Origin: a virus
Lineage: Duplodnaviria > Heunggongvirae > Uroviricota > Caudoviricetes
Direction: 5' to 3' (one strand)
DNA: 13,965 nt
Virus record (IMG/VR): IMGVR_UViG_2681813421_000009
The notes under the pieces are model-generated. The model worked only from the letters and a program-made list of their open reading frames with translations, was not told the DNA's origin and ran no database searches. A program made the translations under genes and the position numbers. This document shows, one piece after another, positions 3,884 through 13,965 of this stretch (within the stretch, counting starts at the first letter, position 1; each line of letters begins with the position of its first letter).

Positions 3884-4058
3884 GCCGACAGGAACACCAC
3901 AACCTCAAAAACGCTACAAAGATGCCCACGGAGCACTCGTTACTGTCGAAAGCGTGTCTCACAACCGAGTGACGTTTTATCGCGACGGGTATCAATCGCC
4001 ATGCGTACAACCGCTGGCACGTTTCATGAAGGAGTTCGCGGAGGTTAACAAATGCTAA
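3876..4058 (+). CDS. small hypothetical protein (60 aa)
   Basis: ATG at 3876 overlaps the upstream stop (ATGTTTAA), indicating translational coupling. The six-frame ORF from 3789 is probably an N-terminal over-extension. Confidence 0.5.
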   Translation: MFKPTGTPQPQKRYKDAHGALVTVESVSHNRVTFYRDGYQSPCVQPLARFMKEFAEVNKC

Positions 4059-4713
4059 CCGCCCAGAAGAAGATATTTTCACTGGCTGGTATGTCGCCAA
4101 AATCCAGCAATATGACAGCAAAGTCAGACATTAATACAGCAGATACAAGCAAAGTTTATCATTTGCTGGTGGTAGGAGCGGATGCCTTAACTATGTCAGA
4201 AATTACGGTCGATGGTGTTAGCGTTGAGAAGGTCAGCGGCTATGCCAGAGAATTTCTGGTCGTAGATGGCTTTCTCTGCTCGTGTAGTGACTCCACAAAA
4301 ACCTTCGTCCACGCGCGTGACGTTAACGAAATGAGCGCGATGTACTGTGCTTCTGGTTCTTCCAATAGTGAGTTTTCGGAGTCCATAAAAAAGAGCTTGC
4401 CGTTATGCGGCAACACGGTTTATGGTTATAAGGCACCTCATAAAACGGGTGCCGGGATTGGCGTCCTAAAAATTCTGAAGGCGACATATGACGCGCCAAG
4501 CGTCTTTTTTTATGTCGTAGGTCTGACTCACCCATTTTTTGGGCGTTGGTGTATAATCCAGCGCCTTTGTCAATCAATGGTGGCTCAGGCGGGGGCTTCT
4601 TCGGAAGCGCCGGTATCCTTCAGAGCCGGTTACGCCAACCCTGTCTGGGCTACCACCAGCGAAATTGGCGTTTCCGGTGGTAGCGTAACCTGCTATCTGA
4701 AGGAGGCTGCCAC
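4052..4713 (+). CDS. hypothetical protein, 3' boundary unresolved (six-frame ORF runs without a stop to 5119)
   Basis: ATG at 4052 overlaps the upstream stop (ATGCTAA). The N-terminal ~150 codons look protein-like, but the 3' part crosses a strongly structured region and the RBS-supported Icd-like gene in another frame. End coordinate is a placeholder, not an observed stop. Confidence 0.3.
4595..4690 (+). ncRNA. candidate structured regulatory RNA upstream of icd (possibly C4/CI-type antisense RNA)
   Basis: Hairpin GCTTC-TTCG-GAAGC (4595-4608) with a UUCG tetraloop. Nested stem GGTTAC (4628-4633) / GTAACC (4685-4690) enclosing a perfect 9-bp stem GCTACCACC (4649-4657) / GGTGGTAGC (4676-4684). 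Located immediately 5' of the Icd-like gene. Confidence 0.3.
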
Positions 4714-4908
4714 ATGCTGGCTACTACCCCTACCCAAAAAACGCAATTTATCTGGATTATCGCCGCAGTTCGCCGCGATTGCCCGACAATTACCGCCAAA
4801 ATTCATCATATTGCTGCCGAGTCTGAACGCGATGCTCGCCGTTCTCTGGTGCGCGATCACGTCTGCTTTTTTGCTGGTCGTATCCGCATGGAGGTGGCAC
4901 ATGATTAA
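4714..4908 (+). CDS. Icd-like protein (host cell division inhibitor Icd family)
   Basis: 64-aa ORF with strong RBS AGGAGG at 4701-4706, 7 nt before the ATG. Sequence pattern FIWIIAAVRRD...ERDARRSLVRDHV.FFAGRI matches my recollection of Icd-like proteins of P1/P4-type elements. Confidence 0.7.
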   Translation: MLATTPTQKTQFIWIIAAVRRDCPTITAKIHHIAAESERDARRSLVRDHVCFFAGRIRMEVAHD

Positions 4909-5119
4909 AACCTACGATGTGCATATGGATCCCCTCGAACGCACAAGCCAGATCATCACACTGACAGAAGTGATTAACGACATTCTGGTGAGCAACTCTC
5001 CCTCACGAGACGAAAGACTGAAGGCGTTACTCGCGATATTGGATCTCGCCGTTCGTGACGTTCATTTCCTGCTGGAAGGTGGCGAAATGCCAGTAAAAAC
5101 GGGGGCAACCAATGAATAA
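4901..5119 (+). CDS. small hypothetical protein (72 aa)
   Basis: ATG at 4901 preceded by GGAGGTG (4890-4896) and overlapping the Icd-like stop (ATGATTAA). Same frame as the long 4052 ORF, but this internal start has its own RBS. Confidence 0.5.
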   Translation: MIKTYDVHMDPLERTSQIITLTEVINDILVSNSPSRDERLKALLAILDLAVRDVHFLLEGGEMPVKTGATNE

Positions 5120-5784: not shown

Positions 5785-6379
5785 TTTCTTAACTTTCCAT
5801 GCAGAAGCAACGCCTGGCGGCGTAAACATCATGTACCGCAGCAACGATGGCATGACAGAACGCGTTGAGGCCGTCTCATATATTGATGCCGTAAATCGTC
5901 TGGATGCCGGGGATTATGACGATAAACCAGATGAAGGTATGTCAATACATCTCGCTATTGCCGATGGCGGCAACCAGGGATATTTCGATTACACATCACA
6001 GCATAACGTCATTATGTGGAGATGGCTGATCGCAACAGTATTCATGCTGGAAATGAGAGAGGAAAACGGCACCGTCAGCATTATTGATGACAGTGGCAAT
6101 CATTCCGTGGTTTCTGTTTATTCCAATGGCATCGTCGCCATGCCGCTGTATCCAGTAGCAGAGCGCCTCGCTATGGCAAACAACATTGAGGGCGCAATGA
6201 TCGAGAAATATGGTGTTGATGTCGGAACAAAGAATGCCATCATTTTTTACAGCAACATGTTCGATGTCGAACAGGGAACACTCACTTCGTTTGGGCGAGA
6301 AGTGCTTGCCGATCTTCACAACAGCTTTATTGCCGAACTAAACGAAAACGGCATCCCAGAAGCACCAGTGACGCACTAA
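5777..6379 (+). CDS. hypothetical acidic protein (200 aa)
   Basis: Internal ATG at 5777 (MNNFLTF...) overlaps the upstream stop (ATGAATAA) and has RBS AGGCGAGG. The six-frame ORF from 5672 is probably an over-extension into the preceding gene. Confidence 0.55.
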   Translation: MNNFLTFHAEATPGGVNIMYRSNDGMTERVEAVSYIDAVNRLDAGDYDDKPDEGMSIHLAIADGGNQGYFDYTSQHNVIMWRWLIATVFMLEMREENGTVSIIDDSGNHSVVSVYSNGIVAMPLYPVAERLAMANNIEGAMIEKYGVDVGTKNAIIFYSNMFDVEQGTLTSFGREVLADLHNSFIAELNENGIPEAPVTH

Positions 6380-6391
6380 ACGGGGGCCAGA

Positions 6392-8743
6392 ATGCGAAAC
6401 ATTGATCTTATCCGTCAGGTTATCAGTGCGTCTGAAAACAACTGGCCTCATGTGCTGGACTGCCTGAACATAAATGTCCCTGACTCTCCGCGCCGTCATG
6501 CTCCCTGCCCTGCATGTGGGGGCAAAGATCGATTCCGGTTCGATGACAACGGGCGCGGTAGCTTCATCTGTAATCAGTGCGGCGCTGGTGATGGGCTGGA
6601 TTTAATTAAACGCGTAAATAACTGCGACACAACAGAGGCGGCGCTTCTTGCCGCTGATGTTCTGGGTATTGATTACCGGACAACGGAAACACCAGAAGCC
6701 ACCAGCCAGAAACGGGAACAACTGGAAACCGAGCGCCAGCGACGCGAACAGGAGCGCCTGAAAAGGGCAGAGAAGGACGAACAACAAAGACGGGATACGT
6801 TTTCCCGTCAGTTTGATGACATGCGCAGAAAGGCTGTAAACGGCAAATCTGATTATCTGGTTGCGAAAGGGGTAGGTGATTTTACATTCCCTGTGTTGCC
6901 CGATGGATCTCTGTTGCTGGCGCTGGTGGATAAATCCGGCGCAGTCACAGCAGCACAGACTATTACCTCACATGGTGAAAAAAGACTCCTGACAGGTTCA
7001 GCAAAGCGAGGGGCATATCACGCCATAAACGCACAGAAACGACCTCACAGCATCATAATTGCTGAGGGGGTGGCTACCGCCCTGTCGTGCCATTTAATTC
7101 GCCCTGACGCAATGACAGTGGCAGCAATCGACGCTGGCAACCTGTTGCCAGTAGCGGAAGTCATGCGCAGAACATATCCACAGGCACAAATCATCATTGC
7201 CGCAGATAACGATCACCAGCAAGGAAACTCCGAAAGTGGAGGGATCAACACGGGGAAAGATGCCGCAGAGAGGGCCGCTATTTCCGTAGCTGGCTGGGTG
7301 TCTCTGCCACCGACTGACTATAAAGCCGACTGGAACGACTATCACCAACAACACGGGCTGGCGGCAGCCACAGCAGCATTTAAAGATTCGATGTACCAGC
7401 CACGGGGGAAAGGGGCGCAGGTGAAAAATCACAAACAGTCAGTCGGGGCGCTGAATGAGATCAGTTCTGGCGAGGTGTTAAGCGATGATGAAATTGCTGT
7501 CCTCGAAGAAATCAACCGGACGTTTACGCATGTCACCATCGGCGGGAAACACAAGGTGGTGTCGCTAAAGCCTTCTCAAACCGGCGGTGTATCGCACGTT
7601 TTCGAGGATTTATCACAATTTCAGCATTATTTTCATCATAAACCGAGAGTCGCCAGAAAGCTGGCGGGATCGGCGTGGCTGTCATGGAGTGGGAAGAACT
7701 ACAAGCCAGGAGGCGTAGGATTTTATCCAGTACCAGACAAATGCCCTGACGATGTTTTTAATCTGTATGAGGGGCTGGCACTGGAACCAATTGAAGGAGA
7801 TTGCACGGTATACCTTAATCACCTGTTGCAGGTTGTCTGTGCCGGTAATGAAGAGGCATACCAATATCTTATCCAGTGGATGGCGCACATTATCCAAAAG
7901 CCTGATGAAAAACCGTCCGTGGCAATCGTGATGAAATCTGTCCCGGGCACAGGGAAAGGCACAACGGTTAAACCGCTGCTGCAAATACTGGGGCAGTACG
8001 CCGCCCACATTAACGGGGCGGGACATATTTCAGGGCGCTTCAATTCAATACTTGCTAACAAGCTACTGGTATTTGCTGACGAAGTGACGATCCACAAGCC
8101 GTCTGAAGCTGACAGACTTAAAGCGATTATTAGCGAACCGACGTTTAACCTTGAGCGCAAGGGAATTGATGCTGAACCAATGCCGAATTTTGCCCGGTTG
8201 ATATTTGCCAGTAACAGCACACAGGTATTACAGGCAGGGATAAGAGAGCGCCGCTATCTCGTGCTTGAGCCATCTCCTGAAAAAGCACAGAGCCGGGAGT
8301 ATTTTGATCGGCTGTACAGTTGGCTTAATGATGGCGGTGCCGCAAAGTTGCTTTGGCATCTTAAAGGGGTGGATCTCTCAGGTTTTGACCCTCAACGAGC
8401 GCCACAGACCGATGCCTTACGTGAAGAAATCTTGCTGGGGCTGTCTGGCGTTGAATTGTTTCTTTATGGCGAGCTAATCAATGAACCTCCGTTTAATGGC
8501 GAAGTCCGTTTGTTTGCAAAGGATATGGTTAGTCGATTTGTAGCGTGGTCGCTTGAGCGTGGGGAAAAGCTTAAAGAACCAGCTGCCAGATCACTACTGG
8601 GTAAATCACTTGCACAAATGGGGCTGGTGAAGCATGGAAGACCAGACCGAGGGAATGGCGTGTTCTACGAACTACCAGAGGTCGGAGTTCTACAGGCTGC
8701 GTTTGCCCGTCTGATCGGTATGGGGGGTTATGATGTTTTTTAA
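6392..8743 (+). CDS. P4-alpha-type primase/helicase (Zn-ribbon, Toprim primase, D5-like helicase)
   Basis: 783-aa ORF. N-terminal zinc ribbon (CPACGGKDRFRF...FICNQCG), Toprim motifs (IIIAEGVATALS and IIIAADNDHQ), C-terminal Walker A (VPGTGKGTT, about 7945-7970) and Walker B (LLVFADEV). RBS GGGGG upstream of the ATG. Confidence 0.9.
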   Translation: MRNIDLIRQVISASENNWPHVLDCLNINVPDSPRRHAPCPACGGKDRFRFDDNGRGSFICNQCGAGDGLDLIKRVNNCDTTEAALLAADVLGIDYRTTETPEATSQKREQLETERQRREQERLKRAEKDEQQRRDTFSRQFDDMRRKAVNGKSDYLVAKGVGDFTFPVLPDGSLLLALVDKSGAVTAAQTITSHGEKRLLTGSAKRGAYHAINAQKRPHSIIIAEGVATALSCHLIRPDAMTVAAIDAGNLLPVAEVMRRTYPQAQIIIAADNDHQQGNSESGGINTGKDAAERAAISVAGWVSLPPTDYKADWNDYHQQHGLAAATAAFKDSMYQPRGKGAQVKNHKQSVGALNEISSGEVLSDDEIAVLEEINRTFTHVTIGGKHKVVSLKPSQTGGVSHVFEDLSQFQHYFHHKPRVARKLAGSAWLSWSGKNYKPGGVGFYPVPDKCPDDVFNLYEGLALEPIEGDCTVYLNHLLQVVCAGNEEAYQYLIQWMAHIIQKPDEKPSVAIVMKSVPGTGKGTTVKPLLQILGQYAAHINGAGHISGRFNSILANKLLVFADEVTIHKPSEADRLKAIISEPTFNLERKGIDAEPMPNFARLIFASNSTQVLQAGIRERRYLVLEPSPEKAQSREYFDRLYSWLNDGGAAKLLWHLKGVDLSGFDPQRAPQTDALREEILLGLSGVELFLYGELINEPPFNGEVRLFAKDMVSRFVAWSLERGEKLKEPAARSLLGKSLAQMGLVKHGRPDRGNGVFYELPEVGVLQAAFARLIGMGGYDVF

Positions 8744-10658: not shown

Positions 10659-12002
10659 ATGGCTACGTGGCAACAGGGTATTAATTCTGGTGGTTTTCTG
10701 GCTGGCATCGGTGCGCAAAATGAGAATGCGCCAAAGGCAAGCGACATTAACGCAACGCTTGGTCTGATCCGCGAAAACAATGAACTGGCTCGCTCAGGTG
10801 CAAATAACGTTGCTCTGACAGGTCTTCGTGGTCTGGCTGGAGTTGCTGACATTTATAAGCAGCAGCAACAGCAGGAACGTAAAGCGGCATTCCAGAAAGG
10901 TTATGCAGATGCTTATGCGTCCGGTGACAGGGAGCAGATGCGTAATCTTATTACAGCATTCCCAGAAGAGTTTGAGGAAGTCCGTAAAGGGATGAGTTAT
11001 GTCGATGATGCTCAAAGGGATGATTATGGCAATCTGGCGCTCAAAGCACAGGTAGCCTCATCGCTTGGTCAGGGCGCATTTGGCAGGTTCATGATGGATA
11101 ATGAGCAGGAGATGCGTCGTTTAGGTATCCCTCCAGAAACTATTGCTGAAATGCAGGTTAATGACCCGCAGGGCTTCCAGCATTTCGCAGGTAATCTGGC
11201 GCTGTTTTCTCTCGGTCATGAGAAGTATTTCGATATCAAAGATCAAATGGAAGGTCGTCGACTTGAGCAAGGGCGACTGGATGAAAGTATGCGTCAGGCT
11301 GACATGGAGAACGCGAGAGGATGGGCAAATATCCAGAACGCTCAACTAGACAGGGCTCAGCGAGCACAAATTCACTCAGATGAGATGGGATTGAAGCTAA
11401 TGGAGCTGGGGCAAAAAGGTAAGCCGTCAGCAGACTTAATTAAGGGATTAAATTCTGACATTACCAATTTTGGCAAAAATTATAACTCTGTCAGAGCGGC
11501 GGCAAACTCTCTGCAAGCCCTTAGCAAGGTAAATACTGGCGCTGCCCAACTTGGGATTATCTTCAACTACATGAAATCTCTTGACCCGCAGTCAGTCGTT
11601 CGTGAAGGCGAACAGGTTCAGGTAATGCGGTCTGATGGCATATGGGGACAAATCAAAGGATACATAGACCAGCTTAATGCTGGAAACGGCCTGTCGCAGG
11701 AGGCAAAGGATAACATTGTTAACGCCGCAAAAATCAACGCCAATGCTATGGGGCAGCAGTTTAACCAGCAGGTTGACGAGTATCTCGATACATATGGAGA
11801 AACTATTCCTCAGGGGCTAAGAAAAAGCCTTGAAAGAAGGAAAGCGAAGCTATTTGACGATGTTTCCGGGCAGCCTACATCACAGGCTGGCACTGGACAG
11901 GCAAAAGCGGCAACCGGAGGAATATCAGAAGGCGCAACGGCAACCAACCCTAAAACTGGTCAGAAAATCATTTACAGGAACGGAAAATGGCAGCAAATGT
12001 AA
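10659..12002 (+). CDS. hypothetical Gln-rich, coiled-coil-like protein (about 447 aa)
   Basis: ATG at 10659, 4 nt after the upstream stop; a GTG at 10647 is the alternative start. Contains a QQQQQ run and many Q/E/R-rich predicted helical segments. No catalytic motif recognised. Confidence 0.6.
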   Translation: MATWQQGINSGGFLAGIGAQNENAPKASDINATLGLIRENNELARSGANNVALTGLRGLAGVADIYKQQQQQERKAAFQKGYADAYASGDREQMRNLITAFPEEFEEVRKGMSYVDDAQRDDYGNLALKAQVASSLGQGAFGRFMMDNEQEMRRLGIPPETIAEMQVNDPQGFQHFAGNLALFSLGHEKYFDIKDQMEGRRLEQGRLDESMRQADMENARGWANIQNAQLDRAQRAQIHSDEMGLKLMELGQKGKPSADLIKGLNSDITNFGKNYNSVRAAANSLQALSKVNTGAAQLGIIFNYMKSLDPQSVVREGEQVQVMRSDGIWGQIKGYIDQLNAGNGLSQEAKDNIVNAAKINANAMGQQFNQQVDEYLDTYGETIPQGLRKSLERRKAKLFDDVSGQPTSQAGTGQAKAATGGISEGATATNPKTGQKIIYRNGKWQQM

Positions 12003-13792
12003 TCTTACCGGAAGGTTTTGTGCTCGATGAACAACCTGATAACTCACAGTTTCCTGATAGTTCACAGCTTCCTGATGGTTTTGTGCTTGATGCCCAACCA
12101 GAACAGCAGCAATCACCTTTGGTTTCACCAGAGGAAAATTCCAGACAGGAAAATGTTGTTAATAATGCTAACGGTTTCGACCGTTTTATGTATGGCGTTC
12201 TCAGTGGATTGATGGATGTTGGTAAAGGTGTTGGCCTGTTTCAGGATATGACACCAGAAGAGCAAGCCGCAATTCAGTCTCTACAGCAGAAGTTAGCGGC
12301 AAAACCATCAACCGCACAAGATGTTGGTGAGTTCGTTGGACAAGCAGCGCCATTTGTTAGTGGTGGTGGGATTATTTCTCAGGTTCCCAAAGGGGCGGCA
12401 AGACTGGCTGCCGCCGCAGGGCTTGGTGCTGGAGAAGGGGCTATTGTAGCCAATGGAACAAATAGCGATGTTGCTTCCGGCGCTGCTATTGGCGCTGTGG
12501 CTGGCCCTGTAGCCGAACTTGCTGGCCCTGCAATTAATAAAATAGCTGGGAAATTAACCAAGAAGAATGTTTCTTCGATTCCAGATATTGAGGGGATTAC
12601 TCCTGCCGAAGAGAAAATTCGTAAGTTATCTGCACAAGGCAACCCAAATCTTGCCTCTTCGCTTGAAGGGCTAGATCTAAAACCTCAGAAAGAAATTGTT
12701 GAGGCTGCAAATAGGCTTCATGTTGATTCAGTTCTTCCTTCTCATTTATCAGGAAATGAGCAATACCAAGCTGTAGAGCAAGCCCTAAAGTCACGGACAG
12801 GATCAGCGTTAAAAGCTCAAGAAGATAAAGCAATAAGCGAATTAGCCTCTAGTGCTGGCAAGATAATCGATGATGTTGCTGGTGCGCCAGATGCGTTAGC
12901 TATGAGCGAAAAATATATTTATCAGATAAATAGTAGAATGGAAGCACTAAAAAACCGTAGTGATCAGTTATATAAACGTGTTGATTCCGCTCTATCACCA
13001 AGAACAAAAGTCGAAGCAAATAACACAAGCACTATGCTGGAAAAAATCGCTGATGATTTAGGAGGGTGGGATAATCTTGACCCAATAGAAAAGCGAGTTT
13101 TTACAGCAATAAACCCCGGCCCAGATAGCATCCTAACGTATGCAAATTTAAACAGGCAAAGGCGTTTAGTTGGTGATGCCCTAAATAAAAAGCAGGGGCC
13201 ATACAAAGATGCTGATAAAGAAGCGCTATCAAGACTATATGGAGCTTTAGCTGAAGACCAAAAATCTGTCTTATCCAATACTGGATACTTGCGAGATTTC
13301 GAAGTCGCACAACGCCTTGTAGCTATGAGAAAAAACTTAGAAAGGCAAATGGTAAATCTTCGCGGGAAAACACTTAATGGGGATATAGCGTATAAAGTAA
13401 CGAATTCTCTTCAATCTATGGCAAAAGGTGATGCGAGAGGGTTTCGTGAGATTATGCAAAATACTCCATCAAGAACATTGCGAAGGGAGCTAGTAGGAAC
13501 AGCATTAAGAGATATGCTTTCCTCTGGGAAGCGTGGGGCCGACTTTAATCCATCTGGCTTCGCAGATTGGTGGCAAAACTTGCAACACAGTGGACAGCTA
13601 AAGACTTTGGCTGAACATTTGCCAAAAGAAACAATGAGCGGACTATATGATGTATACAAAGTTGCCAGAGCAATAAAAAATGCTAAAGCGCATGAAATAT
13701 CTACTGGTAAGCTGAATGAGTTTGTAAACAGATTTAATCGGGTAACAGCTCCATACGAACTAGCAGCAAAGGTAGTGACTCCAACTTACTGA
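11987..13792 (+). CDS. hypothetical large protein, 3' end truncated by IS1 insertion
   Basis: ATG at 11987 with RBS AGGAA, overlapping the upstream gene by 16 nt. N-terminal tandem motif [10 protein letters not shown] / [10 protein letters not shown], then a Gly/Ala-rich segment, then an AT-rich-encoded K/E/N-rich C-terminal region. Native sequence ends at 13770; the last seven codons (VVTPTY-stop) are read from the IS1 inverted repeat. Confidence 0.6.
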
Positions 13793-13965
13793 TAGTGTTT
13801 TATGTTCAGATAATGCCCGATGACCTTGTCATGCAGCTCCACCGATTTTGAGAACGACAGTGACTTCCGTCCCAGCCTTGCCAGATGTTGTCTCAGATTC
13901 AGATTATGTCGCTCAATGCGCTGAGTGTAACGCTTGCTGATAACGTGCAGCTTTCCCTTCAGGCG
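13771..13965 (-). mobile_element. IS1-family insertion sequence, partial (continues beyond window end)
   Basis: Terminal inverted repeat GGTAGTGACTCCAACTTACTGAT at 13771-13793 matches the IS1 right-end IR at 21 of 23 positions; the adjoining sequence matches IS1 with scattered substitutions. Confidence 0.9.
13786..13965 (-). CDS. insB: IS1 transposase InsB, C-terminal fragment (partial at window edge)
   Basis: Minus-strand translation of 13786-13965 gives [59 protein letters not shown]-stop, the InsB C-terminus as I recall it. Confidence 0.85.

Follow-up and report, generated by a model that had tools for sequence, protein, structure and literature searches.

The described genes closest to the one considered here are gene 16 of bacteriophage P22 and its homologues in the P22-like phages Kapi1, Sf101 and APC_JM3.2. 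In P22, the products of genes 16 and 20 (gp16 and gp20) must match as a pair, and residues of their C-terminal regions affect both DNA delivery and escape from SieA exclusion; residues 476-609 of gp16 are dispensable for membrane association in vitro (PMC10883804). The closest described insertion elements are the IS1A and IS1F copies of E. coli K-12, of which IS1F barely transposes; target duplications of 8 or 9 bp are the norm for IS1 (PMC12428005). Pseudogenes disrupted by IS elements are a familiar feature of IS-rich E. coli and Shigella genomes: strain-specific insertions into accessory DNA that are flagged by PGAP. The insertion described here does not differ from these in any substantive way; the gene that it hit does differ from its phage relatives in where it is found.

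The DNA analysed is a stretch of 13,965 nucleotides recorded as a tailed virus (IMG/VR record IMGVR_UViG_2681813421_000009) and is called the window throughout. It is 100% identical to the chromosome of the enterotoxigenic E. coli (ETEC) strain L1_E925 (NZ_LR883050.1), the reference strain of ETEC lineage 1 (O6, ST2353, Guatemala 2003; PMC8085198), hereafter E925. Positions are those of the window; positions in the E925 locus (L001) were converted as window = L001 + 5986, and those beyond the end of the window are given as window-equivalents. The IS-free locus used for comparison is that of strain 2014EL-1346-6 (L002).

A P22-type ejection-protein pair on a P4-family island

The interrupted gene lies on an island of about 17.7 kb (including the IS1) that, judged against the empty site in K-12, extends from immediately behind the stop codon of yicC to about 220 bp upstream of dinD. 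The features that identify the island are as follows.

1-1269: integrase (Pfam Arm-DNA-bind_3/Phage_integrase)
4433-4510, plus strand: isrK RNA (Rfam, 60.5 bits)
4573-4660, plus strand: C4 antisense RNA (Rfam RF01695, 79.9 bits), of the P4-type immunity RNA family
6392-8743: alpha-like primase (Pfam Zn_Ribbon_Prim+Toprim_3+DUF5906), followed by the gene-20/16 pair
10659-12002, plus strand: intact homologue of P22 gene 20 (ejection protein, 447 aa; Pfam Inj_translocase, E=2.5e-73; PGAP "phage DNA ejection protein")

Further island ORFs in the window encode an AlpA-like protein (Phage_AlpA), AntA, DUF4222 and "Ash" proteins. The island has the P4-type integrase, AlpA, alpha-like primase and C4-type immunity RNA of a P4-like satellite. 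Genes for control of capsid size or of a helper were not recognised: among the 22 island ORFs, no Pfam match to Psu or Ogr_Delta was found at E<=0.01. Both isrK and the C4 RNA lie within a 355-aa ORF (4052-5119) that Pfam and PGAP call an "Ash family protein", so that the ORF, if genuine over its whole length, shares its DNA with the two RNAs; otherwise part of the call is spurious.

An exact-repeat search for an att core returned only a 12-mer within a longer imperfect motif, and the borders were fixed by the empty K-12 site. A short CAGATTCAGA repeat is present at both island junctions (the ends being the yicC stop codon and L001 11543). In the yicC-dinD spacer of K-12, nothing has been replaced by the island except at the junction, and there is no tRNA gene at the site. 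The imperfect motif, CGTGTACATAnnGGTGTACATAAT, occurs near both island ends (L008, approximately 6360-6400, and L001, approximately 11440-11475); these repeats are possibly integrase arm or accessory sites.

To judge from homology and position, the interrupted gene corresponds to P22 gene 16, which encodes the third ejection protein. This assignment follows from its profile matches (phrog_6704, E=1e-174; phrog_770, "DNA transfer protein", E=1e-50) and from its 16-nt overlap with the gene-20 homologue, directly 3' of which it lies; the same overlap joins Kapi1_057 and Kapi1_058. The gene-20 homologue is 75% identical to Kapi1_057, and the interrupted gene is 43% identical overall to Kapi1_058, which stands in the gene-16 position; it is also of similar length to the phage genes. 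Against the Sf101 protein, identity is 63% over aa 204-701. The product is a mosaic: its N-terminal 110 aa are 90-92% identical to the versions in P22-like prophages and the remainder is 24-35% identical. As a separate observation, some P22-like prophages encode gene-20 products with up to 94% identity to that of the island.

General searches with the 705-aa protein were uninformative. It had no match in Pfam, NCBIfam or PADLOC, giving no domain-level function for its C-terminus; a PDB sequence search returned only noise (E>0.2), and a scan of one genome per species found no relative.

What sets the island pair (10659-13770) apart from P22, Kapi1, Sf101 and APC_JM3.2 is its setting. It consists of homologues of P22 genes 20 and 16 only and lies on a P4-family island without gene 7, portal, coat or tail genes. 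It is therefore not part of a podovirus virion module (genes 10, 26, 7, 20 and 16). A gene 7 homologue was looked for on the island and not found, and gene 10 and needle homologues were likewise absent from the island loci. By comparison, gene 7 was present in 41 of 41 phage-context loci, and homologues of gene 10 and of the needle gene accompanied it wherever the available upstream sequence was long enough (two short loci lack one or both). The same two-gene module is found in H10407 (L057, 12673-16118), with another integrase and at another insertion site, and in TUM1857 (L004, 1673-5895), with a DUF927 primase. The orphan 20/16 pair is a conserved module of P4-like islands with differing integrases, primases and insertion sites. 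Neither of the two P4-like satellite surveys searched mentions orphan P22-type ejection-protein genes on such islands.

Insertion of IS1 into codon 595

The original prediction, made from the letters of the window, was that a 601-aa ORF reads straight into the terminal inverted repeat of an IS1, so that its true C-terminus is missing. This was borne out, and the other end of the IS1, its target duplication and the remainder of the gene, all of which it had proposed to look for past the window, were found together with an uninterrupted allele in other genomes. The features at the junction are as follows.

11987-13770, plus strand: native part of the interrupted gene, nt 1-1784 of 2118 (codons 1-594 and two bases of codon 595), 100% identical to the start of the 705-aa allele (CP024232 and others)
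11987-13792, plus strand: fusion ORF of 601 aa, comprising 595 native residues and VVTPTY from the IS1 repeat (from the ORF list and the translation against the intact allele)
13763-13770: left copy of the target-site duplication, GCAGCAAA, 8 bp (junction comparison of the E925 locus, L001, with L002)
13771-13793: right terminal inverted repeat (IRR) of IS1, GGTAGTGACTCCAACTTACTGAT (comparison with IS1A)
13771-13965, minus strand (transposase strand): right-end 195 bp of a complete 768-bp IS1 that continues to window-equivalent 14538 (junction and K-12 IS1 comparisons, PGAP)
13786-13965, minus strand: 3' part of insB, with its stop codon TAA as the complement of 13786-13788 (PGAP CDS coordinates, codon comparison)
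window-equivalent 14539-14546: right copy of the target-site duplication, 768 bp further on and outside the window (junction comparison)

Compared with the IS-free CP024232 allele, E925 is identical up to nt 1784 of the gene (window 13770), and comparison with the IS-free 2014EL-1346-6 locus gave the same 1784 nt of identity from the gene start. There follows an insert of 768 bp with the 8-bp direct repeat GCAGCAAA on both sides, a length usual for IS1, and then the gene resumes. The first base of IS1 in the window is 13771, from which the DNA reads GGTAGTGACTCCAACTTACTGATAGTG..., the IRR of IS1 (in a longer read of the right end, GGTAGTGACTCCAACTTACTGATAGTGTTTTATG...). The displaced 3' part of the gene, 110 codons, extends beyond the IS1 to about window-equivalent 14880. 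For more than 2 kb to its left and to its right, the IS1 is bordered by DNA collinear with the IS-free locus, which marks a simple insertion and not a deletion or rearrangement breakpoint.

A search of 5,426 complete E. coli genomes matched the gene, in whole or in part, in 142. In 84 genomes, a single place covered 80% or more of it (identity at least 99.3% where listed), and most of the alleles listed at that coverage are uninterrupted, giving IS-free alleles of the full 705 aa (WP_000729823.1) in about 80 other E. coli genomes. Among the 5,426 genomes, the junction at nt 1784 was observed in E925 only. Close O6:H16 relatives keep the intact gene with identical flanks, which makes the insertion in E925 recent.

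The part of the protein that was lost is conserved. By tblastn against phage genomes and IMG/VR contigs, homologues were found in P22-like phages and prophages (Kapi1, Sf101, APC_JM3.2 and about 40 UViGs); the complete phage homologues are all 705-722 aa long and align through to residue 699-701 of the query, so that the 110 missing residues can be aligned with phage proteins. These residues include a Gly/Ala-rich hydrophobic stretch (aa 603-621), one of four such segments in the protein, and the conserved motifs AAD.L..SP.F and TIAR.GI..WL. The core that is most widely shared by the distant homologues, about aa 230-584, is retained in the 601-aa product; even so, that product is likely non-functional.

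It had also been proposed that the insertion truncated the last cargo gene and may have inactivated the cargo operon. No gene does follow it in the rightward string or in the window, but the island continues for another four genes before dinD: one for a membrane protein of 131 aa, convergent with it, two small ORFs on the minus strand and one for a regulator of the PerC family. Operon inactivation did not hold up, as the upstream genes are untouched and, because the next gene is convergent, there is no polar effect downstream; a single gene was hit. No terminator was found in a search between the two convergent genes.

The gene for the 131-aa predicted membrane protein (L001 8914-9309, window-equivalent 14900-15295, minus strand) lies directly after the gene-16 homologue, and in P22 the equivalent place is occupied by sieA. 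We considered the protein as a SieA relative and dropped the idea: tblastn found no phage homologue, leaving position as the whole of its support, and profile scores were sub-threshold only (Bax1-I and CBO0543, Pfam/NCBIfam). Further along, E925 and 2014EL-1346-6 would differ by 9 bp in the length of the spacer 5' of the PerC-family gene (L001 10517-10780), judging by annotation offsets of 776 and 767 bp.

Public annotation had already recorded most of this. RefSeq/PGAP splits the gene into two pseudogene fragments, the first "missing C-terminus" and the second "missing N-terminus", and places between them, on the other strand, an "IS1 family transposase, programmed frameshift". The IS1 event in E925 is therefore an ordinary one that the annotation already marks.

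A mosaic IS1

In all general respects, the inserted element resembles IS1A and IS1F of K-12. It is 768 bp long and its terminal repeats are imperfect, of approximately 23 bp and starting GGT (left repeat, IRL, GGTGATGCTGCC...; IRR, GGTAGTGACTCC...). The insA frame is open, the AAAAAAC (A6C) frameshift site lies at nt 307, the insB frame is open and the target duplication is of 8 bp; Pfam finds Zn_ribbon_InsA, HTH_Tnp_IS1 and DDE_Tnp_IS1 on the element (PF03811, PF12759 and PF03400, E from 3e-21 to 1e-74). Chance resemblance to IS1 is excluded, because 100%-identical 768-bp copies are present in many E. coli chromosomes and plasmids.

It had been suggested that the visible IS1 end departs from the canonical copy in both the inverted repeat and the 3' region of insB and may belong to an iso-IS1. 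The first of these statements is correct: there are 15 differences from IS1A in the 195 bp within the window, two of them in the IRR (13775, G for A; 13789, C for T). The IRR matches the left repeat at 18 of 23 positions, equal to the count for IS1A (counted from the printed sequences). All coding differences from IS1A in the visible 195 bp are synonymous, and the encoded InsB residues are the same as those of IS1A. The stop codon of the fusion ORF, TGA at 13790-13792, also lies inside the IRR.

The second was correct in part, as the whole element shows when it is oriented from insA to insB and set against the two K-12 reference copies, which differ from each other at 73 positions.

Whole element, 768 bp: 43 differences from IS1A (94.4% identity), 36 from IS1F (95.3%)
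5' part: 0 differences from IS1A (nt 1-261), 27 from IS1F (nt 1-265)
3' part: 43 differences from IS1A (nt 262-768), 9 from IS1F (nt 266-768)
195 bp within the window: 15 differences from IS1A (92.3% identity), 3 from IS1F

The element is diverged, but its 5' third is that of IS1A, and it fits neither K-12 type from end to end. It is thus not an iso-IS1 of the IS1F type, which differs from IS1A/IS1R by about 10% throughout. From these comparisons, it is a recombinant mosaic: an IS1A-type left end and insA joined to an IS1F-type insB and right end. No ISfinder name for the variant was found in plasmid annotations or in the supplements of the E925 genome paper.

Nor is the variant rare or new. 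Identical 768-bp copies occur not only in E. coli chromosomes and plasmids at large but also in plasmids of Shigella sonnei and in NZ_LR883052.1, a plasmid of E925 itself, and a copy at least 99% identical to the E925 element is present in 454 of the 9,598 E. coli records with IS1. On the E925 chromosome, IS1 was matched at 40 or more places. Across the whole insB frame, 30 of the 41 codons that differ from IS1A are synonymous; such mostly synonymous change points to a functional diverged lineage and not to decay. This type of IS1 is intact, widespread and evidently active, and in this it differs from the K-12 copy of IS1F, whose insB has an internal stop.

Other lesions in the gene and how the insertion may be read

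E925 is not the only strain in which this gene is damaged. At least four further independent lesions are found in related strains, as follows.

E1648 (L009, 3593-4360): an identical copy of the 768-bp element at nt 2092, inserted in the opposite orientation and flanked by a 9-bp duplication; E1654 and E1739 have the same spans and scores and, from the matches alone, would carry the same insertion
TUM1857 (L004, 3366-4130): a different IS1 variant at nt ~365
360D-1 (L010, 3413-4275) and apparently 254D-1: nt 913-1787 replaced by an IS3-family remnant
2011EL-1370-2, LR882973 and E272: gene match stops at nt 239; in 2011EL-1370-2 (the one inspected; L011, 4240 onward), the DNA from nt 240 almost up to dinD is deleted

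The right breakpoint in 360D-1, nt 1788, is only 4 nt from the E925 IS1 site. H10407 has an intact gene-16 homologue; there it is the gene-20 homologue (L057, 12673-14016) that is annotated as a pseudogene, with a stop inside the frame.

The E925 locus is almost certainly the product of a recent simple transposition of an intact, mosaic 768-bp IS1 into codon 595 of the 705-codon gene-16 counterpart. The transposase, InsAB', would have been made by -1 frameshifting at the A6C site and would have cut and joined the element at its target, leaving the 8-bp duplication; the donor was presumably another of the identical IS1 copies, of which the cell has many. The outcome is a 601-aa product that lacks the last 110 residues, a conserved part of the protein, and a 3' remnant beyond the IS that has no promoter. 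We would regard the event as neutral decay of a dispensable island gene, the simplest reading where a genome carries at least 40 copies of IS1 and island DNA is dispensable.

An adaptive disruption is the alternative that fares best, although we consider it unlikely: an orphan ejection-protein pair may be costly, or its inactivation may alter interactions with phages, so that lesions are selected. In its favor, this gene of 2.1 kb has at least five independent lesions in the 142 genomes (three IS1 insertions, at nt 1784, 2092 and ~365, the IS3 remnant with its deletion, and the large deletion), and there is the internal stop in the neighboring gene-20 homologue of H10407. However, in lineages with at least 40 IS1 copies, insertions build up in dispensable island DNA without selection; by a rough estimate, any given 2-kb stretch that tolerates insertion would be occupied by an IS1 in approximately 1-2% of such genomes. 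Further, the gene is intact in about 80 genomes at 99.3% identity or more, and the insertion in E1648 costs only the last few codons.

The remaining alternatives fare far worse. The 40 or more IS1 places on the chromosome are repeats of the kind that can mislead assemblers, and a misjoin could in principle have put an IS1 into the E925 gene; this is very improbable, as the 768-bp element is perfect, its target duplication has the canonical length, its flanks are undisturbed, the genome is a long-read, manually curated reference (PMC8085198) and comparable independent insertions are seen in other assemblies. That the protein naturally ends here, with the IS1 having landed just 3' of a native stop, was the refuting condition named with the original prediction, and it is itself refuted. 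The widely conserved core of the distant homologues does stop near aa 584, but the stop of the 601-aa ORF sits within the IS1 repeat, the IS-free alleles continue for 110 codons, the complete phage homologues run to 705-722 aa, and no IS-free homologue ending at residue ~595 was found among about 80 alleles and 40 phage homologues. IS1 is known to cause adjacent deletions, and the gene is deleted in the related strains 360D-1 and 2011EL-1370-2, yet an IS1-mediated deletion or rearrangement, with the rest of the gene and adjacent DNA lost or moved, is refuted for E925, where the gene resumes right after the IS1 with its 8-bp duplication and more than 2 kb is collinear on each side.

As a recent simple transposition, then, the IS1 finding itself matters little: it is one strain-specific insertion that RefSeq already annotates. 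Identical copies of the mosaic IS1 have made independent insertions in the lineage 1 strain E925 and in E1648/E1654/E1739, unlike the defective IS1F of K-12. What the stable orphan 20/16 module does is a separate matter. It might be a weapon or tool of the satellite against P22-like phages, a reading that we put forward as a long shot: the island ejection proteins, with N-termini about 90% identical to the phage versions, might enter the virions of a helper or an invader and could there either poison those virions or equip particles that carry the satellite. In P22, mismatched gp16/gp20 pairs give non-infectious particles (PMC10883804). If this reading were true, the repeated IS and deletion lesions would represent turnover of the module's function in ETEC. 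Beyond the insertion, the gene that was hit points to an undescribed association between P22-type ejection genes and P4-like islands, which may merit separate study.
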